DNA of 32,000 nucleotides from Candidatus Saccharimonadota bacterium (GTDB lineage: Bacteria > Patescibacteriota > Gracilibacteria > UBA1369 > 2-02-FULL-48-14), in assembly GCA_041661045.1 (NCBI GenBank), contig JBAZVE010000001.1, positions 750,001-782,000 on the forward strand. Direction: 5' to 3'. This document shows positions 277 through 25,370 of this stretch, piece after piece. The stretch's first letter is position 1. Each line of letters starts with the position of its first letter. The position numbers and the translations under genes were made by a program. Below the pieces are notes generated by a model, which was given only the letters and a program-made list of their open reading frames with translations, did not search any database and was not told the origin of the DNA.

Positions 277-1404
277 ATGAAAGAAACCAGCGTCGTTTAC
301 GGAGTTTATAGTAATATCGATCAGCCGATTTTGGTGCGAGTACAGGATTTTTTTATCGATCGTAAAAGGGTTGGGGTAAAAGAAAAATCTTATTTTTTCC
401 ATTTGCTGGCGGTGATGATTGATGCGGGGATCCCCATCATGAAGGCGCTCAAAGTGCTTTCAAAAAAAACGGAAAATCCACGGTTTGCACGGATCCTCAA
501 TACCTTGGCTTATGATGTGGAACGGGGAAAGCTAGTGAGCCAATCCATGCTCAAGTTCCCCGATGTGTTTAAGGATTCGGAAGTGGGCATTGTGCGCAGC
601 GGTGAAAGCATTGGAAACTTGGCCTTGTTGCTTTTTAAGTTGGCGGAGCAGAGCGAACGCACACATGCTCTTACGCTCAAGGTGCGCGGTGCTTTGATTT
701 ATCCCGCCACGGTTTTGATCGCTCTTTTGATTTCCGGCGCTATTGTGGTTTCTTTTGTGATTCCTCGTATTGAGGAATTTTTTACGCAGGCGAATTTTGA
801 ACTGCCCTTTTTGACTCGGGTGGTTTTGACCGCGGGCTCTTTCTTCATTCAGTTTTCCTGGCTTTTTGTGATTTTGGTTTTCTTTTTGCTTCTTTTGGGA
901 AGTTTTTTTGTGGGCACGGAGAATGGAAAGCGCAAAGTGGACACTTGGTCTTTGTCTTTTTATTTTGTGGGCGACACGGTGCGAAAACTCAATGTTTCCC
1001 GGTTCATTCAACTGTTGAGTTTGCTGGTGGAGGCGGGCGTTCCCATTCATGAAGCCATTCGTATTTCCAGCGGAGCGGTGAGCAATGTGCTCTATAAAGA
1101 TTTTTTGAATACGCTGAGGAGTGGCGTGGAACGGGGAGAAAAAATTGCAGACAATTTGGCCAAGGCTCCGTTCTTGTTTCCTGAGACGGTGGTGGCGATG
1201 GTTTCGGTGGGAGAGGGCAGTGGACAGCTTGGAAAAATTGCAGAAAAACTGGCCCGACATTATGAACAAGAAGTGGAGCATTCCTTAAATAATTTCACAA
1301 CCATTTTGGAACCTCTGGTGATTGTTTTGGTCGGGCTCAGTGTGGGAGTGATGGCCCTCGCTTTGCTCGGGCCCATCTTTTCGCTCTCAACCCTTGTCTC
1401 ATGA
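277..1404 (+). CDS. pilC: Type IV pilus platform protein PilC (GspF family)
   Basis: 375 aa with ATG start. It shows the duplicated GspF-type architecture with three hydrophobic TM segments, and conserved-looking stretches such as GESIGNL and VSVGEGSGQLG. Confidence 0.9.
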   Translation: MKETSVVYGVYSNIDQPILVRVQDFFIDRKRVGVKEKSYFFHLLAVMIDAGIPIMKALKVLSKKTENPRFARILNTLAYDVERGKLVSQSMLKFPDVFKDSEVGIVRSGESIGNLALLLFKLAEQSERTHALTLKVRGALIYPATVLIALLISGAIVVSFVIPRIEEFFTQANFELPFLTRVVLTAGSFFIQFSWLFVILVFFLLLLGSFFVGTENGKRKVDTWSLSFYFVGDTVRKLNVSRFIQLLSLLVEAGVPIHEAIRISSGAVSNVLYKDFLNTLRSGVERGEKIADNLAKAPFLFPETVVAMVSVGEGSGQLGKIAEKLARHYEQEVEHSLNNFTTILEPLVIVLVGLSVGVMALALLGPIFSLSTLVS

Positions 1405-1985
1405 GTTTGTCCTCTCTTCAGCCAAAGCCCGCATTCACTCTTATTGAGCTTTTGGTGGTGATCACCATTATTGGGGTGCTTACGGGCGTTTTGATTCTGG
1501 ATTTTTCCGGCATTAAACAGCGGCAGGAGCTTTCCTTTATGGCGGACCAAAGCCTGGCCATGCTTCAACAAGCACGGGCGGAAGTTCAGGCGGGAAAGCT
1601 GCGGAGGGAAGATGGAATCTTTTTGTGTGAAGGCGTTTTTTTTAAACAGGGACAGGCCCCGGAATCGGCCGTGGCGGATTACAATGGAGAAGCAGGCGTT
1701 TGCGAGGGGGATTCTTTTGAACTTTTGCCCTATGGACTCAGCACCGGCACCGCTTTTATTGAGGAAATTACCGTGGGCGCCGCCGGGCAGGACGAATTGT
1801 GGGCCTTTTATAGCCCTCCCGAAGGAGAGGTGTTTTTATTTTCATCGGACGGGGAATTTTTGGAGGGAGATGCTACACTTGTTTTTGCTGCTGCAACCGA
1901 AATTCCACTTCAAGTGTTTCTGCAGATTTCCACTCAGACCGATTTAGCCTCTTTATCGCTTGGCAATGAAGAAAATGAAGAATAA
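1401..1985 (+). CDS. Prepilin-type N-terminal cleavage/methylation domain protein (minor pilin/pseudopilin)
   Basis: The N-terminus KPA-FTLIELLVVITIIGVL is a class III signal. Its ATG overlaps the pilC stop (ATGA). Confidence 0.85.
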   Translation: MSLSSLQPKPAFTLIELLVVITIIGVLTGVLILDFSGIKQRQELSFMADQSLAMLQQARAEVQAGKLRREDGIFLCEGVFFKQGQAPESAVADYNGEAGVCEGDSFELLPYGLSTGTAFIEEITVGAAGQDELWAFYSPPEGEVFLFSSDGEFLEGDATLVFAAATEIPLQVFLQISTQTDLASLSLGNEENEE

Positions 1986-2487
1986 GTCCTCCGCATTCAC
2001 CCTCATCGAAACGCTGATTGCCATCACCTTGGTCATGGTGGTTATTACGGCGACCACGGGTCTTATCTTGAGCACTTTGCTTTCCAATCAACGCAATATT
2101 CATTCTGTTCAGGCGGCTTTTTTGGCTCAGGAAAGCTTGGAGGCTTTGCGGTTTATGCGCGACAGCAATTGGCTTCAAAACTATGCGTGGGATGGAGGCA
2201 CTCCGCTGTGGGGTGGGGATTTTGCATTGAGTGATGGGGAAGAGGTGGAGCTTTTGCTCAAAGAGGAAGATTGTCCTCCTTGTTTTGCCTTCACTTCTTT
2301 TACGGAACAAGCCACGGTGAAATTGGGCGGCAATGAGTATATTCGTTCGGTGCTTTTTAAAACGGTTTTGGATGAAGAAGGAAATCGACTTCCCGGCACG
2401 GTGGAGGTGATTGCAAAAGTGGCCTGGCAAGAACGAGGGGAGACTCGCAGCATTGAGGTTTCTACTTACTTAAGCAATTGGCAATGA
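1966..2487 (+). CDS. Prepilin-type minor pilin
   Basis: The N-terminus is MKKMKNKSSA-FTLIETLIAITLV. I chose the ATG at 1966 rather than the TTG at 1960 used by the ORF track. The gene overlaps the upstream pilin gene. Confidence 0.85.
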   Translation: MKKMKNKSSAFTLIETLIAITLVMVVITATTGLILSTLLSNQRNIHSVQAAFLAQESLEALRFMRDSNWLQNYAWDGGTPLWGGDFALSDGEEVELLLKEEDCPPCFAFTSFTEQATVKLGGNEYIRSVLFKTVLDEEGNRLPGTVEVIAKVAWQERGETRSIEVSTYLSNWQ

Positions 2488-3035
2488 AAAAAACAGTACG
2501 ATCCATGCCGGCGTTTACTCTACTGGAGATGATCATTGCCATTACGGTTTTTACAATTTTTATTGGGTTCAGCATTGGCGTGTATCTGTCTTATCATCGC
2601 ACGAACCAGGAGGCTTTGGTGATGCGCAGCATCATGCTTGAAGCCGAGGCCGCCATGGCCGCGCTCACCGAGGCAGTGAAGGAGAATCGGGTGGATTATG
2701 ATCGTTCGGATGAGTCGAATTTGGCGCTGCGCGGCCCCGATGGAACCGGCCTTTTGTATGCTTGGGACAAAGAAAATGAAGCGCTTTCGGTGCTGAGCAC
2801 CGCCGCCGATGGCAGCTCCGGCGAAGCCCTTTTGCTCCACGGCCCCGCCACGAGCGCGAGCTTTGTTTCTTTCCGCGTTTTCCCTGAGAAAGATCCCTAT
2901 TCCAATCGTAGCGAAGCAAGTCTTCAATATCAGCCCACCGTTCAAATCCTCTTGGAATTTTCTTTGCCCGGGCGCGTGAAGGAAGAAGTGAGCGTCCTGC
3001 TTCAAAGCTCCATAACCAGCCGTTTCTACCAATGA
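2484..3035 (+). CDS. Prepilin-type minor pilin
   Basis: The N-terminus is MKKTVRSMPA-FTLLEMIIAITVF. The ATG at 2484 overlaps the upstream stop (ATGA). Confidence 0.85.
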   Translation: MKKTVRSMPAFTLLEMIIAITVFTIFIGFSIGVYLSYHRTNQEALVMRSIMLEAEAAMAALTEAVKENRVDYDRSDESNLALRGPDGTGLLYAWDKENEALSVLSTAADGSSGEALLLHGPATSASFVSFRVFPEKDPYSNRSEASLQYQPTVQILLEFSLPGRVKEEVSVLLQSSITSRFYQ

Positions 3036-4018
3036 TTTTTTCGCCTCCTCGTTTTCGATCTTCTCCGGCTTCCGCTTTGTTGCTCTCTTTTTTTATGATG
3101 ACGGTTTTGCTTTTGGCGTCCATCTCCGTGAGTACCCTGGTGCTGAGGGACACCGTGGCGGTTCGCAGCATGGTGAGCGGGGTGCAGGCACTGTACGCGG
3201 CCGAAGGCGTGACGGAGTTGGGGCTCTATTCTGTTAAAGAAAATCTCCCCGGTTATGAGCCGAGTTTTTTGGACTATTCCCTCAATGAAACCAGCATCGC
3301 GTCCGCTCAGCTCAGTGCCCGTGGAACGGTGGTGCCTTGTGAGGGGCAGAGTGAAGACGGCTGGGGTGTCCTCGACCCCAACGAATCGGTTCAGTTGGCT
3401 CTGTTTGCTCAAACGAAGGAAGACGGAAGTTTTTTGAAAAACACTTCTTTTAAAGTTGAATTTTTTGTGGGAGATGAAGAAGAAAATCCGCTCTTCAACG
3501 ACATGACTCAATTTTTGACGGAACAGGATGTGCTGCGATGGAAAATTCTTGGACTTTATTACGCACAAACGGAGGCGATTTCGGAATACATTCCGCTCGA
3601 CACCACCAACAACCGTACTTCTCCCGAGAATCCTTCGGTCTTTGGGCCCGGAGCTTCCGGCACGGTTCCGGATGGCTACAAATATGCTAAATTTTATGAC
3701 TCCGGAACGCCCTCGCATTTTTACCCCAGCTATTCCATCGCGACTTTCTTAGAAAATCACGATTACAATTATTTGGTGCTCACCAATATCATTCAAGGGG
3801 CCGAGGATGCACGCATTTACTACCGTTTGCACTGGGTCCCCGGTTCCGGCGTGCCCTCGGCTGAGCTGGGCGGTGTGGTGTGTGAATACACCGAAATCAA
3901 CGCTTTGGCCGACAGCACCGGTATTGCCGAAGTCCGCCAAGTCCTCCAGACCTTGGTGCGAGAAGGTGAAAACCTCCCCGTCTTTGATTTTGTGCTCTAC
4001 CACACCAGGGAGGATTGA
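3032..4018 (+). CDS. PilX-N-like large minor pilin / pilus-associated protein
   Basis: The hydrophobic N-terminus (SALLLSFFMMTVLLLASISVSTLVL) lacks an FTLIE motif, as in PilX_N-type proteins. It has an ATGA overlap with the preceding pilin and is the last gene of the coupled pilin block. Confidence 0.6.
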   Translation: MIFSPPRFRSSPASALLLSFFMMTVLLLASISVSTLVLRDTVAVRSMVSGVQALYAAEGVTELGLYSVKENLPGYEPSFLDYSLNETSIASAQLSARGTVVPCEGQSEDGWGVLDPNESVQLALFAQTKEDGSFLKNTSFKVEFFVGDEEENPLFNDMTQFLTEQDVLRWKILGLYYAQTEAISEYIPLDTTNNRTSPENPSVFGPGASGTVPDGYKYAKFYDSGTPSHFYPSYSIATFLENHDYNYLVLTNIIQGAEDARIYYRLHWVPGSGVPSAELGGVVCEYTEINALADSTGIAEVRQVLQTLVREGENLPVFDFVLYHTRED

Positions 4019-4554: not shown

Positions 4555-5103
4555 ATGGCGATTCCAAGATCCGGTGACTTGCTTACGACAGAAGAATTGG
4601 AGACGCAAAAGGCTGCAGCTGATATGGCGGTGATAGAGGCTCGTGAAGTCCCACACATTGCTTTTCTTTTGCACCAATTGGATGCGTTTATTGGCTCTGA
4701 GGTGCAAGCGGGTAGAGTGCGAGCGGAAGGCGGAATCTTTTCTTTGAATAGGACAAAGGAGGGGTGGGAACTTAGTGACCAGGTTTTTAGAGCCAATTTG
4801 CCCTTTGAGGTGACGGACCCTTTTGACTTCAGAAACTTATGTTTGGGCTTGATTGCGGGGCGGATCCATGCCGTGGAGGAGTATTTGAGGCCTTTGGGCT
4901 GGCAAGCCTCTTTATCTAAGGGAAGCGAATCTCATGGAAGCGATGGAGAAGGCCCTCCTCGAGGCCCTGAACGGAGAGGCGGTACATCGGGAGAAGACAC
5001 TTTGACCCTCACCCCTTTGGAGCAAAAGGATCCCGTTGAGCAGGGGGCCTCTTCTACAATGGAGGACCTTGTAGGTGTGCTTGGGGAAGGACAATCTCAT
5101 TAG
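4555..5103 (+). CDS. Hypothetical protein, paralog of 5128-5670
   Basis: The N-terminus is MAIPRSGDLLTTEELETQKAAAD..., followed by EGGIFSL. It shares its first 12 nt and these motifs with the next gene. The C-terminus is a low-complexity Gly/Ser/Glu tail. Confidence 0.65.
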   Translation: MAIPRSGDLLTTEELETQKAAADMAVIEAREVPHIAFLLHQLDAFIGSEVQAGRVRAEGGIFSLNRTKEGWELSDQVFRANLPFEVTDPFDFRNLCLGLIAGRIHAVEEYLRPLGWQASLSKGSESHGSDGEGPPRGPERRGGTSGEDTLTLTPLEQKDPVEQGASSTMEDLVGVLGEGQSH

Positions 5104-5127: not shown

Positions 5128-5670
5128 ATGGCGATTCCAGGACCTCAAGATTTGATTTCGAGGCAAGAGTTGGAGGCGCAGGAAGCTGCAGATGTGCAGG
5201 CCTTGGCGGCGCAAAAAAAGGAGCAAATGGAGGCAGCTCTTTTGCGGGAGCTGGAGAGGTTTTTGGAGACTAGGCTTAAAGTTCAAGAAGGTGGAAGCTT
5301 TTCTTTGATGGGCACGGAGCTGGATCGTTTGCTTCATGGGTATTTTGAGCTGGGGCCTTCCGGTACGGGTGTACATGAGCGGGAGGTTGCGGCCAAACGC
5401 CGATTGGTGGCAAGGCGTTTAAGTAGTGAGGAGGAAGGACTTAGGTGGCATGCTTCTTTTTCTGAAGTTAAGCATGAAGGAGCTTTTTCCCCGAGTCAGA
5501 GGAGCGTTCAGCCCGCTACCATTGAATACTTTTTAACGCTTAGACCTTTGATGGAGGGTGAAGATCCTGAGGCGGATATTGATCCGAACCCTTATGGTAC
5601 TCGGCAAAAGGAGCAGGCTAGGATGGCTGCAAGAGTTGCGGGTGCATTAGGGAAAGAATGGGAAAAATGA
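5128..5670 (+). CDS. Hypothetical protein, paralog of 4555-5103
   Basis: The N-terminus is MAIPGPQDLISRQELEAQEAAD..., followed by EGGSFSL. No signal peptide or TM. Confidence 0.65.
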   Translation: MAIPGPQDLISRQELEAQEAADVQALAAQKKEQMEAALLRELERFLETRLKVQEGGSFSLMGTELDRLLHGYFELGPSGTGVHEREVAAKRRLVARRLSSEEEGLRWHASFSEVKHEGAFSPSQRSVQPATIEYFLTLRPLMEGEDPEADIDPNPYGTRQKEQARMAARVAGALGKEWEK

Positions 5671-5709: not shown

Positions 5710-5733
5710 GGGGCGGAATTTACCCCTGTTTCA

Positions 5734-7215
5734 ATGGACTCGTTCTACCTCACCAATGCGATTGCGTACACCAATGCAGGGCCTCACATGGGGCATGCGC
5801 TGGAGGCGGTGCAGGGGGATGCCTTGACGCGGTATCATCGTTTGCAGGGTGAGGAAGTGTTTTTTTTGGTTGGGACGGATGAGCATGGCAGCAAGAATGA
5901 GCAAGTGGCTAGGGAGAAGGGGGTCACGCCTCAGGAGCTTGCGGATACAAATAGTGCGTTGTTTTTGGATTTTCATAAGAAAGTGAACGCCGCCAACGAT
6001 GATTTTATTCGCACCACCAGTGAGCGGCACAAGGAGGGGGCGCGGAAATTGTGGACTGAGCTGGAGGCCGCCGGAGTGTTTTATGAAAAAGAATATGAGG
6101 GCAAATACTGCATGGGCTGTGAGGCTTTTATTTTGGACAAAGACTTGGTGGATGGGAAATGCGCGGTGCATTTGAAGGAGCCGCAGATTTTGAAAGAGAA
6201 AAATATTTTCTTTAAACTTTCGCAGTATTCCGAGGCGATCAAGCAGAAGGTGGAGTCTGGGGAACTTTTGATTCGGCCGGCTTCCAGGCGGAATGAATTT
6301 TTGTCGCTTTTGGAAGAGGGGCTGAGGGATGTGAGTTTTTCCAGGCCCAAAAAAAGTTTGAATTGGGGAATTGAGGTGCCGGGGCATGAGGATCAAGTGA
6401 TGTATGTGTGGTGTGACGCGCTCTCCAATTATATTTCCGCGCTGGGTTACGCCGAGCGGAGCGAGGCGTTTAAAAAATGGTGGCCGGCGGCGGTGCATTT
6501 GATCGGCAAGGACATCATTCGCTTTCATTGCGGGATTTGGATTGGCATGCTGATGGCCGCCGGCCTTCCTCTGCCCAAAGCTATTTTTGTGCATGGTTTT
6601 GTCACCAGTGAAGGACAAAAAATGAGTAAGTCTTTGGGTAATGTTGTGGATCCCATTGCACTTATTGAGGAATGGGGAAGTGATCCGGTTCGTTATTACT
6701 TGCTGCGCGAAATCCCCAGCGACGAGGATGGAGATTTTTCTCGTGATCGTTTTGCTGCGGTTTACAAGGATGAACTCCAAAACACCATTGGGAACTTGGT
6801 GCGACGAGTGGCGACCTTGTGCATCAAGAATTTTGACGGGAAAGTGGAGAAACGCAAAGATGAGATGGAGGAGGTGTGGACAAAAACTTGGGAACGATAC
6901 CACAAAGGATTCTTAAACTTTGATATGCGCTCCTCCATTGAGGCGATGCTGGAACTGGCTCGATTTGGGAATTTATACACCGATGAAAATAAACCTTGGG
7001 AACTCGCGAAAACAGACCCCAAACGATTGGCCGTTGTTTTGGGCAATTTGATCCAACTGTGTAGCGGGCTTGGTGAAATGCTTCAGCCCATTATTCCGGA
7101 GGCTGCTCAAAAGATCCTGGATCAGGTCTCGGGAGAAACGATTGTACTCGGAGAGCCTTTATTCCCTCACCATGGCCTCAGCCAACTCGGCGGCACTGAC
7201 TCCGCTGGCGCTTAA
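5734..7215 (+). CDS. metG: Methionine--tRNA ligase (short form without a C-terminal tRNA-binding domain)
   Basis: It carries the class I aaRS signatures HMGH (HIGH) and KMSKS, a CxxC...C..H zinc knuckle, and a typical MetRS N-terminus FYLTNAIAYTNAGPHMGH. Confidence 0.95.
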   Translation: MDSFYLTNAIAYTNAGPHMGHALEAVQGDALTRYHRLQGEEVFFLVGTDEHGSKNEQVAREKGVTPQELADTNSALFLDFHKKVNAANDDFIRTTSERHKEGARKLWTELEAAGVFYEKEYEGKYCMGCEAFILDKDLVDGKCAVHLKEPQILKEKNIFFKLSQYSEAIKQKVESGELLIRPASRRNEFLSLLEEGLRDVSFSRPKKSLNWGIEVPGHEDQVMYVWCDALSNYISALGYAERSEAFKKWWPAAVHLIGKDIIRFHCGIWIGMLMAAGLPLPKAIFVHGFVTSEGQKMSKSLGNVVDPIALIEEWGSDPVRYYLLREIPSDEDGDFSRDRFAAVYKDELQNTIGNLVRRVATLCIKNFDGKVEKRKDEMEEVWTKTWERYHKGFLNFDMRSSIEAMLELARFGNLYTDENKPWELAKTDPKRLAVVLGNLIQLCSGLGEMLQPIIPEAAQKILDQVSGETIVLGEPLFPHHGLSQLGGTDSAGA

Positions 7216-7515
7216 GCCTTCGGCACAAGTGGCTTCGAGGTGTGTTCGTGCCGCTTCAGAAACCAAGTTCAGTTCTTCAGTTCCCTGAATCTCTGCTAAG
7301 TAGGTATCGATTTCCTTAGGATCGCTGTATCCATATTTTTTCATGATGTCCTTGGTGTTCTCTTCCAGGTCTTCCATGGCAATGCTCTCATCAAAAAGGA
7401 GACAAGCGGTTTCGGCCATGGCTTTACCGGTGTTTTCCGCAGTGCTTCCGGTTCCACCGCAAGCGCTTAAAAAAAGGGCTCCCGTGAGGAAAGATGCGAG
7501 TAATGGTTTGAACAT
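7159..7515 (-). CDS. Small putative lipoprotein
   Basis: It has a signal peptide with a lipobox-like LSAC-GG. The 118 aa mature part is acidic and helical-looking. It lies 41 nt downstream of the pilin-module genes on the same strand. Confidence 0.65.
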   Translation of the reverse strand: MFKPLLASFLTGALFLSACGGTGSTAENTGKAMAETACLLFDESIAMEDLEENTKDIMKKYGYSDPKEIDTYLAEIQGTEELNLVSEAARTHLEATCAEGLSASGVSAAELAEAMVRE

Positions 7516-7556
7516 GCTTTAGAGTTAGAGATATAGGCGCACAGGGAATCCTATGC

Positions 7557-7976
7557 TTAAATGGCAGACTTGTCCACCTGGAGTACAATCTGCAAAATGC
7601 CCTGTACGATGGCATAAGAAAGCAAAATCAAAAGGAGTCCCACCAGAGCCCAAGTGGTCCCTCGTTTCCCTTTTTCGATCCGCTCGTCCTTTCCAAAGGC
7701 AAAAATGTAATTGAATCCCGCAATCATAATAAAAATCACGGTGAGTGCACCAGTGAAGAGCAGCACTTGGCTGATGATCTTCCCCACAAACATAATGGCG
7801 GTTTGGGTGGCGGCAGTTTCGGGATGATCTGCATCCACGGCCTCTTCCGCTTCTATGGTGGGCAAACTGTCCGGCCTCAAATTATCGTCCAGTTGCAAGG
7901 CCGCCCAGCTCAGGTCGGCGTTCAAGAGGGAGAAGGAAAGTCCCAAGGCGATGGTGAGGAGGAGTTTTTTAATCAT
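7557..7976 (-). CDS. VirB2/TrbC-like (T4SS_pilin-type) membrane protein
   Basis: I chose the ATG at 7976 (MIKKLLLTIALGL), preceded by GAAGGAAG and overlapping the upstream stop by 8 nt. The layout is signal peptide, acidic spacer, then a TM-loop-TM module reading FAFGKDERIEKGKRG. Confidence 0.75.
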   Translation of the reverse strand: MIKKLLLTIALGLSFSLLNADLSWAALQLDDNLRPDSLPTIEAEEAVDADHPETAATQTAIMFVGKIISQVLLFTGALTVIFIMIAGFNYIFAFGKDERIEKGKRGTTWALVGLLLILLSYAIVQGILQIVLQVDKSAI

Positions 7977-8877
7977 TGCTTCCTTCGGTGTTAACAAATA
8001 CTTCATCGGACTCTCGGTTGCTGCTGTCCGTGAGATCCAAGTTGGCGATTCCATATACAATGGCGTAGCCCAAAGCTAAAAGAGCGAGCGCGATGGCGGA
8101 ATAAATCACAATATTTTTTGCCTTTGTTACGGCTTCTTCATTTCCACGGGCAATTACTAAAAGGGTTCCTCCGTAACAGAACGCGACGAAGATTAAAAAA
8201 GCCGTGGCGTACAGGACATTGGTGACCACCGCCGGTACAATTTCCCCTAAGAAATCTCCGCCGGGCAGAGAAACGCGCCCCTGGGTATCCTGGTCTTCAA
8301 TAATATCTTTTTGACTGGGAAGTAGGAGATCCAGGGCTTCTTCAATATCCAAATTTTGTGGAGGAGTGGTCTCCGCCGCTTCCGCGCTTGGTATGGCAAA
8401 GAAAGAAGTCGCGGAATCTCCATCTTGTTCATTGGGGAGCGAAATGGAAACCACCACGGAAACGATTCCATAGGCCAATATTATTAAAAGGAATCCTAAA
8501 AGACCGTAACGAAGATTGGTTTTGGCTTTGGTGAGTTTGTCGTCATTTCCGTAGGCAGTGAGCATTTGAATGGCTCCAAATAAAATGCCGGCAAAGGTCA
8601 GCAGCCCCATGAGTCCTATAAAAATATTGATTCCCTGGGGTATGGCTTCATTGAGAATATAATTTTGTGTGTCGTAGCCGCTTTGTCCGGTGTCCGGGGA
8701 GGGGAGAAAGTCAGGCGCGGGAATGTCTGGGCGAACCACCTGATCTTCCGGCGAAGCATCGTCTTCCGCTGCGGCGTGCGCAACGGGGACTTGGACTGCG
8801 CTGTGCAGCATTAAACCTGTGCCCAAGAGGCCCAATCCAAAGAAAAATACAAATGCGATTTTAAATAGTTTTATCAT
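7969..8877 (-). CDS. Tandem double VirB2/TrbC-like pilin-module protein
   Basis: A signal peptide is followed by two TM-loop-TM modules with loops TAYGNDDKLTKAKTN and IARGNEEAVTKAKNI, separated by an acidic linker. It has an ATGA overlap with the upstream gene. Confidence 0.75.
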   Translation of the reverse strand: MIKLFKIAFVFFFGLGLLGTGLMLHSAVQVPVAHAAAEDDASPEDQVVRPDIPAPDFLPSPDTGQSGYDTQNYILNEAIPQGINIFIGLMGLLTFAGILFGAIQMLTAYGNDDKLTKAKTNLRYGLLGFLLIILAYGIVSVVVSISLPNEQDGDSATSFFAIPSAEAAETTPPQNLDIEEALDLLLPSQKDIIEDQDTQGRVSLPGGDFLGEIVPAVVTNVLYATAFLIFVAFCYGGTLLVIARGNEEAVTKAKNIVIYSAIALALLALGYAIVYGIANLDLTDSSNRESDEVFVNTEGSND

Positions 8878-9719
8878 CCGAAAAATCCCGGGTTAATGCT
8901 GTAAAGGAGGAGTCCCGACAGAAAGAGCAAAACCATGCCTCCGATGGCCTGCAGAATTTTATTTTTTGCTTCACTGATGTCTCCGGTGACGCCGGACACG
9001 GAAATTTTGATTCCTTGAAAGACGATTGTTCCCATAAAAATACTTCCCACGGAGAGCGCGGCAAAGGTGAAGATTTGTTTCACCATGAGTTTAATGAGTC
9101 CCATCCCGCTGTCCCCAATCACCCACTGCCGTTTTTCACAATTCACCGCATGGGCAGCACATTCATCGTACGAAAGGCTGTAGAGCGTTCGAACATCATC
9201 ACAACTCACCACTTCACTCCCATTCACCACCCCCGCAAGGCAACACAATCCCGCATAAACGGTGAGGACTTTATTCTGATCATCCAAAACGACATCGCTG
9301 GCAATCACTTCGGTTATCTCTGTCACCAGCAGACCATTTTTCGTACAGTCTCCTTTTTCGAGATAATCGGTGGTTTCATTTGGGGCTCCACATTCTGCAT
9401 TTCCCAGCGTACTTTCATAACTGGCGTTGAATAGCCCATAAAAGTCTTCGTATCTTGTTGCCATTTCTTCTGCATTGTTCGCTCCGGCCTCGAGCTTTAA
9501 GCCGAACGGACATATCAGGGGTGCTTCTATGGCGTTTGCCATTTGATCGTCGGTTCCCAGTACTTCCGTGGTGTCGTTGCCCTCTTCAAAGCTTTCATTG
9601 AACTCATCTTCGCTCATGAGGGGGTCTTCGGTTGGAGCGGCTTCATCCGCAAAAACCAAGATAGCGCCTTGGAGGGTGAGGAGAGAACTGAGGATAAGAA
9701 GGGCGAGGAACTGGCGCAT
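8874..9719 (-). CDS. Secreted Cys-rich domain fused to a C-terminal VirB2/TrbC-like module
   Basis: The signal peptide is MRQFLALLILSSLLTLQGAILVFA. An acidic region and an ectodomain with 8 Cys follow. The C-terminal TM-loop-TM has the loop SGVTGDISEAKNK. Confidence 0.7.
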   Translation of the reverse strand: MRQFLALLILSSLLTLQGAILVFADEAAPTEDPLMSEDEFNESFEEGNDTTEVLGTDDQMANAIEAPLICPFGLKLEAGANNAEEMATRYEDFYGLFNASYESTLGNAECGAPNETTDYLEKGDCTKNGLLVTEITEVIASDVVLDDQNKVLTVYAGLCCLAGVVNGSEVVSCDDVRTLYSLSYDECAAHAVNCEKRQWVIGDSGMGLIKLMVKQIFTFAALSVGSIFMGTIVFQGIKISVSGVTGDISEAKNKILQAIGGMVLLFLSGLLLYSINPGFFG

Positions 9720-9729
9720 GGGAGCGGGC

Positions 9730-10155
9730 TTAATAAAAGAAGGATTGAATAAATACGGTGATGAAATAGGCGAAAAAAGCTAAAAGACAGCCCACAATGG
9801 CCTGGCTGAGAATGCCTTTTGCTTTGTCCACTTGGCCTTCATCTCCGCCGGCGGTGACCATCATAAAACCTCCAATCATAATCACAACGAAGGTGACGGT
9901 TCCAATCAAGAGCGTGAGAATATTGATGATGCGAAGGATGATGGCGGCGGGGACGGAGACCCCTCTCTCGGTGGCTTCATCCGTGATGTTTTCGTAAATT
10001 TCGGTGCTGTCGTTGGTTTGATTGTCTTCGGCATCCAGATCTAAAATTTCTTTCACATCAAAACCGCTATATCCGTTGTCTGCTAAGGCCAGCGGAGAGG
10101 CAAGCAGGCCGCAAGAGGCTAAAAAGAGGACGAAACTGGCGATGATTTTTTTCAT
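9730..10155 (-). CDS. VirB2/TrbC-like (T4SS_pilin-type) membrane protein
   Basis: The signal peptide has either a lipobox-like LASC or an ALA-DN cleavage site. An acidic spacer precedes a TM-loop-TM with loop TAGGDEGQVDKAKGI. It has an ATGA overlap with the ATPase gene. Confidence 0.8.
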   Translation of the reverse strand: MKKIIASFVLFLASCGLLASPLALADNGYSGFDVKEILDLDAEDNQTNDSTEIYENITDEATERGVSVPAAIILRIINILTLLIGTVTFVVIMIGGFMMVTAGGDEGQVDKAKGILSQAIVGCLLAFFAYFITVFIQSFFY

Positions 10156-12263
10156 GTGGCGGGCGAGTTGTCTTTACTATTATACCTGTTTTTCAGTTTT
10201 TCTTCAACCAGGGAAACCGGGCGAGCGCATTGGGCTCTGGAACGGGTTTTTAAGGTTTCGAGCGGGAGTGGGGTCTTGGAGGGGGGCGTTTTCTCAACAT
10301 TCATCCTAAAAAGAGGCAGTGGGCTGCCCTGGTGGAGGAGCTTTGCATAGGCTTGAAAAGGGGCGAGCTGGGTGAGGTCTTCTTCGGTGAGGCTGAGGGA
10401 GGGCGCAAGGATTTGCGCGTCGGCATAACTAGTGCGAAAACAGAGCAGCGAGCCCACATTCCCCAAAATGGCATCTTGAATTTCGTGCGGAACTTGGGTG
10501 AGGTACTGGTTGGCCAGGGTCAGGGCCAAGCCGTATTTTCTGGATTCCGCCAACATGGTGAGCAGGGTTTTGCTGGTGAAGTTTTGAAATTCATCCACGG
10601 TGAGACAAACCGTTTTTCGGCTTTCGGATGGGAGCTCCGCCCGTTGCAAGAGGGTGGACTGAATCATTGAGATGAAAACCATGCCCAGTATGCGGCTGGC
10701 ATCTTCGCCCAGTTTCCCCTTGGGGAGTGAGATCAGCACGATTTTGCTTTCGGCGAAGGCGTTTTTGAAGGAGAACTTGCTCTTGGGTTGGCCAAAAATG
10801 TTTCGGAGGACCGGAAGCGTGAGCAAGGGGCCCACTTTGTTGAGGATCGGAGCGCTGTGTTCTTGCCGGGTCCGCGGGTCTTGTTTTAAAAATTCTTCTT
10901 TAAAAAATCGGTGCAATTCGAAATCGTCCGTGAGCTCGAGCATTTTTCGGCAAAAGGCTTCGTTGGTGAGGAGGCGCGGAAGGTCGAGCAGTGTGGTGTT
11001 TGGGGCGAGAATCAGGAGGAGGAGTGCATTGCGCAAAATATATTCCAACCGTGGTCCCCAACTGCCCTGGGCCAAGACTTCAAACATTTCCACCAAGGCG
11101 GAGGCCTTGAGGTTCGGATTTTCTCCTGGGCAGAGCTCTAAAGGGTTGAGGGCGAGCGGAAAATCGGCATCGCCGGGGTCCAGGAGGAGGATGTCTTTTG
11201 CCCGCTCGAGGGGAGTGAGCCGGAGGGCGTCTTCAATCAAGTCCCCATGCGGGTCCAGCACCACGATGCTTCGGCCGAGTTCGGTATCTTCCCTAAAAAG
11301 ATGCAAAAGTGTTGTGGATTTGCCCATGCCCGTTTTGCCCACCAAGTACAGATGTCTTTTGCGATCTTCTTCCTCAAGCTTTGTATTCCCCGGCTCGGGA
11401 AGGTGGGCGGTGGGTTCGGTGTGCAGATAAGTGGCTTGTTCCTTTGCATTTGGGAGCGAAAGCAGGCTCGCCAGCTCTTCGGCGCTCAGCACGGTTTCTT
11501 GGTTTTTACGACTGAGACTGAGTTCGCCCAAATAAGGCAGGGTGAAGCCGTGCACAAAATCTTTAAAGGGGTGGCTCAGGGTGATTTGTGCTCTAAACAG
11601 AGGTCTGGACAGCTTGTCGAGGATGGCGTGGCGGGGATCTTCCCGTTCGTGCGAGGATTCCATTTGTTCTTGGGGTTCCTGTTTTTGTGTTTTGAGCGGG
11701 GAGCTAAAAAGGCAGTTGCGAAGGAGCGGGCCGAGAAAACGGCGAGCTTTGAAGCTGAACCAGGCCTTACTTTCCCATTGGTCAAAGTGTCTTTCAGGTT
11801 CGAAGCTGCTTTGTTTCACCTTTTTTAGGGCCCGTTCTCTCTGTCTATTTTTGAGGGGAATGAGCTGCAAATGGAGGAAACTGTTTGGGGTTTTGGCCAA
11901 CAGAGGGATCAAGGTGCTCAGGGGTGAAATATGTGTTTTTTGTATCCGATCTTCAAATTGGCTGTACCTTTTGATGGGGAGGAGAGGCCCTTTCTTTTGA
12001 TGGATGAAGTAAAGGGTTTTTGGGCTCGTGGTGAGGAACGATGTGGGGCTTGCTTGTGTTTCGATGAACCGAGAGCCGAGCAGGTGAGTGCTGAGGTCTT
12101 CTGTGCAGAAAAACTGTACTTTTTGGTCTTTTTGACGGATCAGAATTTCGATGGAGCCGGGATGTTTTTGTAGGGTGTGCAGCCAATGGTCGAGGAGCCT
12201 TGGGGAATAGTCACGGGTTTCGCAGAGTCGGAGTTCGTACAGTGTTTTGGCTTGGGGTTTCAT
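10152..12263 (-). CDS. VirD4/TraD/HerA-superfamily P-loop ATPase (coupling-protein-like) with an uncharacterised N-terminal domain
   Basis: Walker A is LVGKTGMGKST, followed by VVLDPHGDL. Walker B-like is VCLTVDEFQNF. Roughly the first 300 aa are unrecognised. No hydrophobic TM segment is visible anywhere in the protein. Confidence 0.8.
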   Translation of the reverse strand: MKPQAKTLYELRLCETRDYSPRLLDHWLHTLQKHPGSIEILIRQKDQKVQFFCTEDLSTHLLGSRFIETQASPTSFLTTSPKTLYFIHQKKGPLLPIKRYSQFEDRIQKTHISPLSTLIPLLAKTPNSFLHLQLIPLKNRQRERALKKVKQSSFEPERHFDQWESKAWFSFKARRFLGPLLRNCLFSSPLKTQKQEPQEQMESSHEREDPRHAILDKLSRPLFRAQITLSHPFKDFVHGFTLPYLGELSLSRKNQETVLSAEELASLLSLPNAKEQATYLHTEPTAHLPEPGNTKLEEEDRKRHLYLVGKTGMGKSTTLLHLFREDTELGRSIVVLDPHGDLIEDALRLTPLERAKDILLLDPGDADFPLALNPLELCPGENPNLKASALVEMFEVLAQGSWGPRLEYILRNALLLLILAPNTTLLDLPRLLTNEAFCRKMLELTDDFELHRFFKEEFLKQDPRTRQEHSAPILNKVGPLLTLPVLRNIFGQPKSKFSFKNAFAESKIVLISLPKGKLGEDASRILGMVFISMIQSTLLQRAELPSESRKTVCLTVDEFQNFTSKTLLTMLAESRKYGLALTLANQYLTQVPHEIQDAILGNVGSLLCFRTSYADAQILAPSLSLTEEDLTQLAPFQAYAKLLHQGSPLPLFRMNVEKTPPSKTPLPLETLKTRSRAQCARPVSLVEEKLKNRYNSKDNSPAT

Positions 12264-12345
12264 GCGCTTTTGGGATGGGTCTTTAAGCGTAGATGGGAAT
12301 TGGTTTTTTGTAAAAATCCCCCCATTGATTTTAGGGGTTTTGTTC

Positions 12346-12378
12346 TTAAAAAATGCGTTGTTGGCGGAGTAACAACAG
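12346..12378 (-). terminator. Possible intrinsic terminator after dus
   Basis: On the minus strand the sequence reads GTTGTT-ACTCCGCC-AACAAC followed by GCATTTTTTAAG. The stem is AT-rich and therefore weak. Confidence 0.35.
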
Positions 12379-12382
12379 GGGG

Positions 12383-13390
12383 CTAGGCGGAACGCAGCTT
12401 CTCCACAATTTCGTTGAGAATGCTTCGGGCTTCCTCCAGAGTGGAGATTTGAACCACCTGGGAGCGGTATTCGCTGGCCCCCTCAAAACCGCGGAGGAGT
12501 TGGACGAAGTGTTTGCGCATTTCCTTCATGCCGCGTTCCTCACCTTTGGATTCCACGCAGAGTTCGGCATGGCGAAGGTAAGTGGGAACCTTGTCTTCAA
12601 AGGAACTGGGCGGGGTGTATGTGCCTCCATAAAGAGCCGCGGCGATTTCCGCCATGAGCCAGGGATTGCCCATGGTTCCTCGGCCCACCATGACTCCGTC
12701 CAGAGTGATGCCGGCATACGGAGAGTCGCCGGATGCGGTGAGCTGAGCGAGGGCGTCGGCCGCGCTGCGAATGTCTCCATTCCCAATCACCGGAATGCCT
12801 ACGGCTTGTTTCACTGCGTAAATGGGGGTCCAGTCGGCGCGGCCCGTGTACATTTGCTTGGCCGTTCGCCCGTGAATGCTCAAGAGCTGGGCACCTGCAC
12901 TTTCCATATCTTTACAGAACTGTACAAACCAGGGGAGATCCACTTTATCGGCACCCACACGGGTTTTAACAGAAACCGGCAGCTTCGTGGCCTTGGCCAC
13001 GGCTTCCACCAATTCCGCGGCACGGCAGGGGTTTTTGAGCAGCGCGGAACCGTGATCGCTGCTCACCACTTTTTTTGCGGGGCAACCCATGTTGATGTCG
13101 ATGGCGTCGATGCCCATGGCCTCGATGCGCTTGGCGGCCTCTGCAAAATGCGCCGGCTTTTTACCAAAAATCTGAGCCACCAAAGGGCGCTCTTCGTTGG
13201 GGTTGAAGTCCAGTTGTTTGAGCGTCATTTTACTGTCGTAGACAATGCCGTCGGCACTGGTGAACTCGGTAAAACAAATCACCCGCGGCTCGATTCCCTT
13301 AATAAGCTGCCTGTAGGCGGTGTCGGTGTAGCCGGCCATGGGGGCAAGCGCAAGAATCGGCCGCTTTGCGGTTTTCCAGGAAAATGCCAT
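12383..13390 (-). CDS. dus: tRNA-dihydrouridine synthase
   Basis: The N-terminus ILALAPMAGYTDTAYRQL and the overall TIM-barrel Dus pattern (NMGCPAKKV, the catalytic Cys region) support the call. Confidence 0.92.
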   Translation of the reverse strand: MAFSWKTAKRPILALAPMAGYTDTAYRQLIKGIEPRVICFTEFTSADGIVYDSKMTLKQLDFNPNEERPLVAQIFGKKPAHFAEAAKRIEAMGIDAIDINMGCPAKKVVSSDHGSALLKNPCRAAELVEAVAKATKLPVSVKTRVGADKVDLPWFVQFCKDMESAGAQLLSIHGRTAKQMYTGRADWTPIYAVKQAVGIPVIGNGDIRSAADALAQLTASGDSPYAGITLDGVMVGRGTMGNPWLMAEIAAALYGGTYTPPSSFEDKVPTYLRHAELCVESKGEERGMKEMRKHFVQLLRGFEGASEYRSQVVQISTLEEARSILNEIVEKLRSA

Positions 13391-13391
13391 G

Positions 13392-14276
13392 TTATTTGTT
13401 GGGATTCACTTTTGGACCTTTCTCCTTTCCTCCAACAAAAACGATATTGTCCTTTTCGTAATCGCGGAAATCGGGATAGTTGCGGATGGGGGCGCCTTTT
13501 GCCCACGCCACTCCAAATCCTTGTTGATCTTCAAAGAGAGCGGACAATACGAAGACTGAATTTTCTCCCCCAATGCCATCGTAGACGGCGTAGAGGTATC
13601 CAAAAGGTTCACCCGCCTTGTCGATTTCTCCTTGTCTGGGGTCGGATGGGATGGTTTCAAAGGCATCGCTCTCTTCCAAAATGGTTTCGATTTCTGCGGC
13701 TGCGGGGTAAGCGCCGGTTTCTTCTTTGTAGGCTTCAATTTCCTCCAAAATGGCAGTCATGTCCTTCACTCTTTGGTCGTTTTCTTCAAGGTAAGTGAGG
13801 TCTTGTTCTTCGTCGTCGGTGATGGAGTCCTCAATGGTTTCCTCGCGGTCGCGATTGGCGAGCCACCAGATTCCGGAGCCTCCGAGTAGAATCACCACCA
13901 CTGCGGGGATGAGAAGGGCCAGGAAGAGTTTTCGTTTTTCAAAGCCTTCATCTTCATTTTCCTCCGTTTCTTCTTCGGGGAGCGTGAGGTCCGGAGCGCT
14001 TTCCACTTGTAAAGAGGCGAGGGGGTCTGGGACGGGGGCGGGATTTGCGGCCGGAGCGGGTGCTGGTGCCGCCGTCGGTGCCGGGGCAGGTTGACTCACC
14101 GCTGCGTGCCTTCGCTCCTCCGCCTGACGCATCAAAGAAAGCGCACGGGCGTTTCCAGGTTCCAATTGCAGAATTTCCAAACACCCTTGAACCACTTTGT
14201 CGTATTCCTTTGCATTGAGCCAAGACTGAACCAAGTTCAGGGCTTCGATCACGCTGATGTCTCCACTGTTTTCCAT
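13392..14276 (-). CDS. Membrane protein: N-terminal TPR-like helix pair, Pro/Ala linker, one TM, C-terminal extracytoplasmic domain
   Basis: The TPR-like segment is AKEYDKVVQGCLEILQLEPGNARALSL. The linker is PAPAPTAAPAPAPAANPAPVP. The TM is LFLALLIPAVVVILLGGSGIWWL. The stop lies 1 nt from the dus start. Confidence 0.7.
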   Translation of the reverse strand: MENSGDISVIEALNLVQSWLNAKEYDKVVQGCLEILQLEPGNARALSLMRQAEERRHAAVSQPAPAPTAAPAPAPAANPAPVPDPLASLQVESAPDLTLPEEETEENEDEGFEKRKLFLALLIPAVVVILLGGSGIWWLANRDREETIEDSITDDEEQDLTYLEENDQRVKDMTAILEEIEAYKEETGAYPAAAEIETILEESDAFETIPSDPRQGEIDKAGEPFGYLYAVYDGIGGENSVFVLSALFEDQQGFGVAWAKGAPIRNYPDFRDYEKDNIVFVGGKEKGPKVNPNK

Positions 14277-23814: not shown

Positions 23815-25041
23815 TTAGCCTCCGCTGCGCTTCGGCTTGAAGGATATCACAAAAATAATCCATGCCAAGAGGATTATCACCGCACCTGTTAAAATGGCTA
23901 AATTTTCGTTTATAGTCACTAAAAATCCGGCCACCAGCGAGGGAATGGCTTGGCCCAAAGCGCGCAAAGATTGGGTGATGCCCATGGCTTCGCCTTGTTC
24001 GCTGGGTTTGCTGATCTGTGAAACCACGGCGGTGGTGTTGGGGAAGGTGAGTCCTTCAAAGAGGGCGAGAAAGGGCTGGCTGAGGTAAAGGAGGGTGACG
24101 CTGGGAATAAATGGAACCACGAAAAGAGTGGCCGAGAGGCAGAGTATGGAGAAGCGAAGCGTGCCTTGTGGGCTCAAATATCGTGCGGCGATGCGTGTGA
24201 AAAGCCCCTGACTTAGGGCGATCCAAATCCCCACGAAACCAAACAAGGTGCCGATTTGTGCACTGCTCATTTCGTACTTTTGAACCAAGAAGACTGGCAT
24301 AAATTGGGTATAAAAACAAAAACCAAGGGCGTGGAGGAAGACCACCAAAAAGATGGAGCGCAGATGTTTCATGTGGAAGGACTTGGCGATGTGCTGGAAG
24401 CCCAAAAAGAGGTGTACCCGCTGATGGGTTGGGTTTTTGAGGGTTTCTTTAAAGAAAAAGGTGAGCAAGGTGAGGCTGAGGGCGGAAAGCAGTGCGGCAA
24501 AATAGAACGGTACCGCGGGGCCGAACCACGGTAATATAGATGGATCGGCCAGCTTTCCGCCCAAAAATGGTCCCACCACAAAGCCCAGCCCAAACGCCAT
24601 TCCAATAAGGCCAAAGTTTTTGGCGCGGGTCTCGTCGGTGCTCATATCGGCAATGGCGGAATTGGCCACACTGATGTTTCCTCCCGTAAATCCGTCCAGG
24701 GCGCGGCTAAAATAGAGCAACCACAGTTGTTGAGTCACGATTCCCACGGCAAACAGCAAATACCCAAAAAAGGTTCCTATCAAAGAGATGGAGAGCATTT
24801 TTTTGCGTCCATAGCGGTCCGAGAGTGTGCCAAGAATGGGCGCCCCAAAAAATTGTCCCAGCGGATACACCGCCACCAGCACGCCCAGCGCAATGTTCCG
24901 CGTGGCCTCCGTCCACAGTGTTGGCACCAAGGTGCTCATGGGGTCGAGCATCATGGGCGCCAGCACCGGAATCATGATCCCAATCCCCATCAAATCTAAA
25001 AAGACGATGATGAAAAGGGTGAGGAATTTGGAGTTTTTCAC
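23815..25041 (-). CDS. MFS transporter (drug:H+ antiporter-like)
   Basis: It has motif A GTLSDRYGRKKML and about 12 TM segments. I prefer the GTG at 25041 (MKNSKFLTLFIIVFLD...), which overlaps the HEPN stop as GTGA. The track start at 25101 is a TTG that would overlap the HEPN gene by 64 nt. Confidence 0.85.
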   Translation of the reverse strand: MKNSKFLTLFIIVFLDLMGIGIMIPVLAPMMLDPMSTLVPTLWTEATRNIALGVLVAVYPLGQFFGAPILGTLSDRYGRKKMLSISLIGTFFGYLLFAVGIVTQQLWLLYFSRALDGFTGGNISVANSAIADMSTDETRAKNFGLIGMAFGLGFVVGPFLGGKLADPSILPWFGPAVPFYFAALLSALSLTLLTFFFKETLKNPTHQRVHLFLGFQHIAKSFHMKHLRSIFLVVFLHALGFCFYTQFMPVFLVQKYEMSSAQIGTLFGFVGIWIALSQGLFTRIAARYLSPQGTLRFSILCLSATLFVVPFIPSVTLLYLSQPFLALFEGLTFPNTTAVVSQISKPSEQGEAMGITQSLRALGQAIPSLVAGFLVTINENLAILTGAVIILLAWIIFVISFKPKRSGG

Positions 25042-25370
25042 TTTATTAGTTTTTGAATGTCTTTTTTGAAAGGAGGAAGATCTTCTTGAATGGTTCTCCA
25101 AATCAATTCCATGTCGAGGTCAAAGTAGTGATGAATAATCATATCGCGCATTCCACATGCATCCTTCCAGGAGATGTGAGCAAGGTCTTTTCTAAATTCC
25201 TGGGGTAATTGTTTTGTGGCCTCTCCGATCACTTCAAATTTTCTTAGAACTGCGTCTTGGGTCTTTTCATCTGACAAAAAATTTACCAAATCGATTCCTT
25301 TCGTGTATGCCTCGATCGATTCCAAGCACTCAAGAATGTGCTTGAGATACTCCTGTTCATCTTTCTTCAT
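25038..25370 (-). CDS. hepT: HEPN-domain (DUF86) toxin of a HEPN/MNT module
   Basis: 110 aa with an Rx4H motif in GMRDMIIHHY. It has an ATGA overlap with the upstream nucleotidyltransferase gene. Confidence 0.85.
   Translation of the reverse strand: MKKDEQEYLKHILECLESIEAYTKGIDLVNFLSDEKTQDAVLRKFEVIGEATKQLPQEFRKDLAHISWKDACGMRDMIIHHYFDLDMELIWRTIQEDLPPFKKDIQKLIK

Follow-up and report, generated by a model that had tools for sequence, protein, structure and literature searches.

Can a secretion or pilus apparatus be organized around a single soluble ATPase and a set of pilin-like proteins? The question is raised by six tightly coupled genes at 7159-12263, minus strand, of a 32-kb stretch of Candidatus Saccharimonadota DNA (the window, by which we mean the whole stretch that was analysed). 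The operon encodes an ATPase related to the coupling proteins of type IV secretion systems (T4SS), four pilin-like proteins, and a small lipoprotein. The original prediction, made from the letters of this DNA, proposed that such a set could be a minimal or novel envelope filament or secretion apparatus. We find that the ATPase-pilin linkage recurs across relatives, with a fixed set of pilin modules and occasional gene fusions. On balance, we read the operon as a lineage-specific arm of Patescibacteria-type type IV secretion/pilus machinery, in which a VirB4 core encoded elsewhere most likely cooperates.

The Patescibacteria are a large and mostly uncultivated part of bacterial diversity. Secretion or pilus machinery of this kind is thought to be used by ultra-small bacteria that belong to the candidate phyla radiation (CPR) on their hosts. 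The only species among them that is genetically tractable cannot grow on its host without its T4SS and pilin array; orphan coupling-protein homologues are ubiquitous.

A tightly packed operon between dus and metG

The list of open reading frames (ORFs) of the window places the six genes at the coordinates first reported for them. Pfam searches on the window ORFs confirm dus upstream and a convergent metG downstream. In order of transcription, the features are:

12319-12337, minus strand: terminator-like hairpin, CCCCTAAAATCAATGGGGG followed by a T-run (scan and sequence read)
10152-12263, minus strand: ATPase of the type IV coupling protein (T4CP; TrwB/VirD4) family, 703 aa, soluble (Pfam, AlphaFold2, Foldseek, hydropathy)
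9730-10155, minus strand: pilin-like protein 1, 141 aa, with signal peptide, acidic disordered spacer, and module 1 (nt 9733-9954); PF18895, 28.6 bits
8874-9719, minus strand: pilin-like protein 2, 281 aa, with signal peptide, acidic spacer, Cys-rich ectodomain (nt 9102-9536), and module 2 (nt 8877-9095); PF18895, 17.6 bits, and module alignment
7969-8877, minus strand: pilin-like protein 3, 302 aa, with signal peptide, module 3 (nt 8437-8655), acidic linker, and module 4 (nt 8032-8250); PF18895, 39.8 bits in two stretches
7557-7976, minus strand: pilin-like protein 4, 139 aa, start ATG 7976, with signal peptide, acidic spacer, and module 5 (nt 7581-7796); PF18895, 26.3 bits
7159-7515, minus strand: lipoprotein, 118 aa, conserved lipobox LSAC, last gene of the operon

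The genes are chained by ATGA overlaps read directly from the sequence (10152-10155 and 8874-8877), an 8-nt overlap, ATGATTAA (7969-7976), and a 10-nt gap (9720-9729); a 41-nt gap precedes the lipoprotein gene. These junctions are as originally described, with one correction: TTG 8060 opens the mechanical ORF of the last pilin gene, and independent gene calls put the real start at ATG 7976. The hairpin at 12337-12319, also foreseen in the original prediction, comes after dus and marks the upstream boundary of the operon. On this layout, the six genes form a single predicted transcription unit that begins after the dus terminator and is translationally coupled. The ATGA overlaps read TGA as a stop codon, which fits the code-11 Peribacteria and not the code-25 Gracilibacteria.

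A soluble ATPase with a coupling-protein-type fold

Four parts of the ATPase recur in the argument:

11394-12263, minus strand: N-terminal alpha/beta domain, residues 1-290, homologous to DUF8128 (PF26449) (tblastn, N-domain profile)
11313-11339, minus strand: Walker A, GKTGMGKST, residues 309-317, with G309, K310, T311, G312, G314, and K315 invariant
10794-11117, minus strand: all-alpha domain of seven helices, residues 383-490, within the nucleotide-binding domain as in TrwB (DSSP of the AlphaFold2 model, TrwB alignments)
10578-10604, minus strand: Walker B region, LTVDEFQNF, residues 554-562 (VDEFQNF 556-562), with D557 and E558 invariant

The protein was first described as a P-loop ATPase free of a transmembrane anchor, and so it is: both Walker motifs are present, and no segment is hydrophobic enough to span a membrane (highest Kyte-Doolittle 19-residue mean 1.48). 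Of the four models put forward for it, three are matched in Pfam, namely TrwB_AAD_bind (46.2 bits, cut-off 20.5; residues 297-615), DUF87 (33.3 bits), and T4SS-DNA_transf (21.1 bits). The core residues of Walker A and Walker B are invariant across 84 homologues, and by these motifs the enzyme is predicted to be catalytically intact.

An AlphaFold2 model built on the 84 homologues (pLDDT 94.6, pTM 0.89) has three parts: an alpha/beta N-domain of 290 residues, a RecA-like nucleotide-binding domain, and the seven-helix all-alpha insert. Searched with Foldseek against the PDB, the model folds like TrwB, the top match (E = 1e-12, target-normalised TM-score 0.61-0.65 over ~425 columns), at 15-17% sequence identity. 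HerA, VirB4 (TrwK, TM-score ~0.3), DotL, and Cag-beta follow in the ranking. Among NCBIfam equivalog models all scores are far under cut-off: 38.5 against 600 for CedD, 33.5 against 366 for SXT_TraD, and 32.9 against 250 for CD1115.

We also considered whether the ATPase is itself a VirB4; no model tested in Pfam, NCBIfam, or hhalign supports this, and the TM-score to TrwK is low. The protein fails the VirB4 models (TIGR00929, 16.7 bits against a cut-off of 643; no match to PF03135 or PF19044), and hhalign to PrgJ, the VirB4 of pCF10, aligned 76 columns at low probability. The hhalign comparisons were made to the single sequences of PrgJ and PcfC, the T4CP of pCF10; their probabilities are low, and they serve for alignment extent only.

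The N-domain sets this ATPase family apart. A profile built on it picks up PF26449 proteins (E = 1e-95 to 1e-76) and finds this ATPase family alone, stand-alone N-domain ORFs included; there is no sequence relative of the domain in the PDB. With tblastn, query residues 28/94-691 align with DUF8128 proteins. The window ATPase has no precomputed PF26449 match and so belongs to a divergent sub-clade of the DUF8128 family. Sequence and model together describe a soluble ATPase with a coupling-protein-type (TrwB/VirD4) fold, in which a CPR-specific DUF8128-type domain replaces the transmembrane anchor.

Five pilin-type modules in four proteins

Each of the four pilin-like proteins has a hydrophobic N-terminal leader and a spacer rich in acidic residues (9-15 D+E against 0-2 K+R). 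Hydropathy gives two hydrophobic helices per protein, and four in the 302-aa protein. The five modules align with one single-residue gap only, around an invariant loop Gly and Lys. Hydropathy and alignment thus uphold the signal peptides, the acidic spacers, and the five alignable helix-loop-helix modules of the first description.

The suspected kinship with T4SS pilins is supported as well. Against a gathering cut-off of 26.6 bits, the Pfam T4SS_pilin model PF18895 is passed by two of the four proteins, the 302-aa (39.8) and the 141-aa (28.6) proteins. Searched against 5.8 billion sequences, a profile built from the five modules finds PF18895 proteins with E values from 1e-18 to 1e-4; some of these proteins also carry TrbC/VirB2 PF04956, and the pilin-4 orthologues P0121-P0135 carry PF18895. 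In the AlphaFold2 model of pilin 1, the helices span residues 68-101 and 106-140 with a 4-residue turn between them, and the spacers are predicted to be disordered. A lipoprotein reading of pilin 1, on the motif LASC, was dropped because orthologues do not share the Cys.

Pilin 2 carries an ectodomain of ~145 aa whose cysteines are conserved in 7 loci; a search of 1.84 billion representatives finds the domain in 54 clusters only, and almost all of these are pilin-2-sized. The lipoprotein is present in most relatives (missing from L088), and its lipobox, L/M-[ST]-A-C, is conserved in 7 loci together with two more Cys; it matches no Pfam or NCBIfam family. The suggestion that it might be VirB7-like is unsupported: the lipobox is there, but the Patescibacteria are regarded as monoderm, there is no VirB7 profile to compare with (PMC12102498), and neither VirB9 nor VirB10 was found by Pfam in the 32-kb window.

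Conservation and fusion in relatives

The exact ATPase protein of the window also occurs on a contig of the Joint Genome Institute (JGI). Beyond it, the operon is found again, with dus upstream and metG downstream, in L002, L003, L004, L082, L086, L087, L088, and L090/91, with ATPase identities of 42-75%; the gene order is thus kept, as the original prediction required of a real unit, in nine distinct loci. Recurrence in nine distinct, related loci argues that the arrangement is not due to chance, and the sequences place the operon as a chromosomally fixed trait of a Peribacteria clade (Peregrinibacteriota; GTDB class Gracilibacteria).

In all nine operons, there are exactly five modules in the same order, while the gene boundaries vary. 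L087 joins pilins 2 and 3 in a single 524-aa protein (12505-14079) that carries three hairpin modules, and its operon still totals five. Orthologous modules are 56-68% identical, whereas paralogues inside one operon are 17-35% identical; this pattern indicates five old, individually constrained subunits rather than fast-varying copies.

The ATPase itself takes part in fusions. In L088 and L090/91, it is fused in-frame to pilin 1, and such fusions occur in four protein clusters (P0011, P0031, P0034, and P0046). Two of the four were found again in independent assemblies, and their DNA shows no stop between the parts. The fusions keep the start codon and leader of pilin 1.

The wider ATPase family

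The sub-clade of the window ATPase is compact, at ~66 clusters at 90% identity, and the pilin set always follows it in the loci examined. The ATPase profile also recovers ~76 other genome loci, which belong to a paralogous, Patescibacteria-wide family of 760-950 aa with a DUF8128 N-domain. These paralogues are 31-35% identical to the window ATPase over ~600 residues, in the N-domain and ATPase domain alike. Their genes have housekeeping genes as neighbors and often occur as tandem copies or in split form. The paralogues correspond to the "T4CP homologues" of a survey of Patescibacteria secretion systems (Quinonero-Coronel et al. 2025; PMC12102498), which counts 5,713 VirD4-like homologues, mostly far from virB4.

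One of the ~76 loci is a second, independent ATPase-pilin linkage. In L031 (9089-15074), from a metagenome-assembled genome of a code-25 Gracilibacteria lineage (TGA is a sense codon), the genes encode an 803-aa ATPase, a 320-aa pilin protein with three modules, and an 810-aa ATPase paralogue. In L023, a single pilin gene lies ~8 kb from the ATPase. A pilin hidden Markov model widened with 27 PF18895 proteins placed modules no farther than 10 kb from the ATPase in loci of the window type, in L031, and in L023, and in no others.

Tandem duplication of the DUF8128-type ATPase is seen in other CPR lineages (L005, L029, L033, L059, L062, L065, L069, L070, and L079), and an N-domain ORF of ~440-530 aa is split from an ATPase ORF of ~590 aa in L050, L058, L063, L064, and L078. 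Further relatives of the ATPase domain, 27-35% identical, are found on plasmids of Streptomyces, Sulfitobacter, haloarchaea, and Sulfolobus; none of the plasmid matches covers the N-domain. The closest annotated relative outside the CPR (35% over 350 aa) is on the Sulfitobacter plasmid NZ_CP081110.1 (L092, 99994-101181). It is an orphan, soluble 395-aa "T4SS DNA-binding domain" protein, encoded on a non-mobilizable plasmid among transposases, with no T4SS genes around it.

The search for other T4SS parts

The original prediction saw no other recognizable T4SS parts. For the neighborhood, this stands. Pfam on all sizeable ORFs of the 32-kb window gave no further T4SS family. A phmmer search with PrgJ and PcfC against all ORFs of 84 loci, in code 11 and code 25, found no VirB4, and Pfam assigned the other large P-loop ORFs in the flanks to DnaX, Mur ligase, and tRNA synthetases. 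The statement applies to the neighborhood only: T4SS genes are often scattered in the Patescibacteria, especially in the class Gracilibacteria, where VirB6 is undetected, and VirB4 is present in ~80% of Patescibacteria genomes (PMC12102498). Relaxases are rare in Patescibacteria generally (PMC12102498). The accessible parts of the survey's genome table and supplement contain neither Peregrinibacteria or Peribacter names nor GCA_015485665; since the NCBI taxonomy also files the phylum outside the "Patescibacteria group," this lineage was probably not surveyed.

How the unit may work, and rival readings

A split T4SS is the leading reading. On this model, Sec would insert the pilin precursors, the leader would be cut, and the acidic N-terminal spacer would stay outside. 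The hairpin would sit in the membrane with its short Gly...Lys loop toward the cytoplasm, by analogy with VirB2. The ATPase, probably a hexamer like TrwB, would dock on the hairpins at the inner membrane face; in the ATPase::pilin-1 fusions, the pilin 1 leader would act as an internal signal-anchor, preserving hairpin topology and tethering the ATPase to the membrane. ATP hydrolysis would power either the extraction of the five hairpin types and their assembly into a short filament or conduit of the VirB2 kind, or the passage of a substrate through it. Pilin 2 may display its Cys-rich ectodomain as a minor or adhesive subunit, and the lipoprotein may serve as an extracytoplasmic accessory. A VirB4-centered core encoded elsewhere in the genome would most likely cooperate, as in other Patescibacteria with dispersed T4SS genes.

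Several observations weigh against the split-T4SS reading. Canonical coupling proteins are not needed for pilus production. According to the title of PMC13463995, a coupling protein even suppresses pili; a conserved, sometimes fused ATPase-pilin unit that holds to five subunits is surprising for these reasons, and a pilus-assembly role for a coupling-type ATPase is without precedent. Within the wider family, only 2 of the ~76 DUF8128-type loci (L031 and L023) have pilin modules at a distance of 10 kb or less, and only L031 has them adjacent to the ATPase; DUF8128-type paralogues are far commoner than the window type. No VirB4, VirB3/PrgI, VirB6, or VirB8-10 was detected in the 32-kb window (Pfam) or in the 6-10 kb flanks of relatives (precomputed Pfam), although divergent versions could escape such searches; cooperation with a core T4SS is accordingly assumed, not seen. 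The 139-aa (26.3) and 281-aa (17.6) pilin proteins fall under the PF18895 cut-off. The top PDB match of pilin 1 in Foldseek, the conjugation pilus 8dfu (CedA1) of Aeropyrum pernix, is not significant (E = 2.1, target-normalised TM-score 0.58); the fold search says little here because helical hairpins are too simple to discriminate. The filament, finally, is a prediction from the genes alone.

The most serious alternative, which we consider unlikely, is a stand-alone minimal machine: the coupling-type ATPase would take the VirB4 role and, with the five modules and the lipoprotein, build and power a filament or conduit that has no VirB4 core. The operon is indeed self-contained and translationally coupled, no core T4SS gene was detected near it in nine distinct loci, and the ATPase::pilin fusions recur. 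The ATPase is soluble and combines a large N-domain with a C-terminal NTPase domain, like VirB4, and the lack of detectable VirB6 across the class Gracilibacteria (PMC12102498) points the same way. However, VirB4 is the one universal T4SS protein, and both its prevalence in Patescibacteria genomes and the known dispersal of T4SS parts in the class (PMC12102498) fit a core at another locus; the observed absence of VirB4 covers operon neighborhoods only. The ATPase is also nearer to TrwB than to VirB4 in both fold and sequence.

Canonical T4CPs carry a two-helix N-terminal anchor, which is missing from the window ATPase. A somewhat less probable reading starts here: the hairpins would never polymerize outside the cell but would supply the ATPase's transmembrane domain in trans, comparable to the anchor of TrwB or to VirB3 for VirB4, in a channel for import or export of DNA or protein. 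The fusions anchor the ATPase physically, and the fold match of the hairpin to pilins is not significant. In archaea, some CedD/TedD VirD4-like ATPases without a transmembrane domain are proposed to reach the membrane via partners, and CedA1/A2 are proposed by the authors to be pseudopilins forming a DNA channel (PMC11823120). Yet the signal peptides, the long acidic N-terminal extensions, and the 145-aa Cys-rich ectodomain suggest surface exposure, which a simple anchor does not need; the modules match a pilin family model, and five distinct, conserved modules exceed what an anchor requires.

A bolder proposal, which we hold to be a long shot, gives each module a place of its own. Every bacterial conjugative pilus of solved structure is a 5-start helix made of pentameric layers (10.1101/2024.03.04.583355). 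The coupling-family ATPase, not VirB4, could be the dedicated motor of a hetero-oligomeric VirB2-type filament, with each of the five paralogous modules contributing one strand of the 5-start helix, so that the five make up one pentameric layer; the operon would then be a minimal, VirB4-independent, chromosomally fixed pilus machine for host interaction. The idea of one paralogue per strand is speculative and was prompted by the invariant five-module set.

An origin in an integrated conjugative element or plasmid, as its remnant or its cargo, which the plasmid-borne relatives of the ATPase domain might suggest, is so improbable that we reject it: dus and metG, both housekeeping genes, flank the operon in all loci with ATPases 42-75% identical, its GC (guanine-plus-cytosine) content is that of its flanks, the 32-kb window holds no tRNA and, by Pfam on all sizeable ORFs, no integrase or relaxase, and the plasmid matches leave the N-domain out. 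An anti-phage defense module built on a HerA/MADS8-like ATPase, to which a PADLOC mad8 match of 58 bits and weak HerA matches pointed, is rejected as equally improbable, since the other five operon proteins match no defense family in PADLOC, Pfam on window ORFs finds no methylase, nuclease, or Sir2 partner near the operon, and the ATPase matches reflect shared features of the P-loop superfamily, with TrwB as the best structural match.

Genomic surroundings

The remainder of the window is housekeeping in character, encoding FtsQ, a class II ribonucleotide reductase, QueA, an MFS (major facilitator superfamily) transporter, a methyltransferase, and an aminotransferase, besides the type IV pilus protein PilC and pseudopilins. 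The following features stand out:

277-4018, plus strand: type IV pilus block encoding PilC (T2SSF), three N_methyl pseudopilins, and a 328-aa protein without assigned family
4555-5103 and 5128-5670, plus strand: tandem paralogous ORFs of 182 and 180 aa, both beginning MAIP..., between the pseudopilin genes and metG
5734-7215, plus strand: metG
25038-25370, minus strand: ORF for a HepT-like ribonuclease toxin (PF01934, E = 7e-29)

The type IV pilus block stays beyond metG in L082, L086, L087, and L088, and not in L090. Over the first 64 residues the tandem ORFs share 38% identity, and neither has a Pfam match. The convergent 3' ends of metG and the lipoprotein gene share 57 nt (7159-7215). Long antisense ORFs lie opposite dus (12353-13798, plus strand), metG (5731-6903, minus strand), and the ATPase gene (10672-11430, plus strand); we take them to be mechanical because the genes on the opposite strands match their families strongly.

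What the operon adds

Patescibacteria were already known to have pilin arrays as well as orphan coupling-protein homologues. The papers that we found do not report that the two are obligatorily linked, nor do they report the fusions or a fixed set of five modules. An ATPase-pilin operon or fusion is not mentioned in PMC12102498, in PMC10633639, or in a 2025 review of T4SS (PMC12857230). Through its structure, its translational coupling, and its natural fusions, the operon provides the first genomic link of the DUF8128/T4CP-like ATPase family to pilins. What had been "exapted for unknown functions" thereby becomes a testable hypothesis, in which the ATPase acts on or through pilin hairpins. The invariant five non-redundant modules are also a natural system in which to ask whether several distinct subunits can build a conjugative-type pilus. 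If the system were truly VirB4-independent, the rule of VirB4 as the universal T4SS motor would be overturned.

Comparison with known systems

The ATPase resembles TrwB of R388, VirD4, and TraD in its Walker A/B nucleotide-binding domain and the inserted all-alpha domain. The canonical proteins have an N-terminal transmembrane anchor, whereas the window ATPase has its 290-aa, DUF8128-type soluble N-domain. It is operonic with pilins, and no relaxase or DNA-processing gene or module is linked to it in the window. To our knowledge, canonical T4CP genes are not operonic with pilins.

The archaeal Ced/Ted systems comprise the VirB2-like CedA1/TedC, the VirB4-like CedB, and the VirD4-like CedD/TedD. 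Like the operon, they pair two-helix proteins of the VirB2 kind with a VirD4-like ATPase, in some cases one that lacks a transmembrane domain; a Sec signal peptide is present on TedC, and the ted locus encodes TedD (PMC11823120). CedD is the best NCBIfam match of the window ATPase, but at a score so far under the cut-off that the protein is not a member. Beyond the difference between archaea and bacteria, Ced/Ted has CedA (VirB6-like) and CedB, and neither kind of protein was found at the window locus.

Two of the pilin-like proteins find their best NCBIfam match in the Mbov_0395 pilin-like family (NF045849) of a Mycoplasma integrative conjugative element (ICE), at 34.1 bits (302-aa protein) and 23 bits, both under the cut-off of 40. 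The Mbov_0395 proteins belong to mobile ICEs that carry a VirB4 (Mbov_0397).

Closest are the VirB2-like pilin arrays already described in Patescibacteria T4SS (PMC10633639, PMC12102498), such as SEML1_0006-0019 of Southlakia epibionticum and the "Sec-secreted array" of Nanosynbacter lyticus TM7x. Like the window operon, they are chromosomal, consist of tandem, divergent PF18895-type pilins with signal peptides, and come with no relaxase. The survey lists 441 VirB2 arrays of 2-11 genes with a mean paralogue identity of ~25% (PMC12102498), against 17-35% in the window operon. The array of S. epibionticum is essential and forms part of a VirB4 cluster in which no coupling protein was recognized (PMC10633639). 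Such arrays are described relative to virB4; the window array instead follows a coupling-type ATPase, with no virB4 detected nearby, and its operon type has a fixed number and order of modules as well as ATPase::pilin fusions. The DUF8128 plus T4CP-like ATPases of other Patescibacteria are longer and rarely near pilins, whereas the sub-clade described here is followed by its pilin set in every locus examined.

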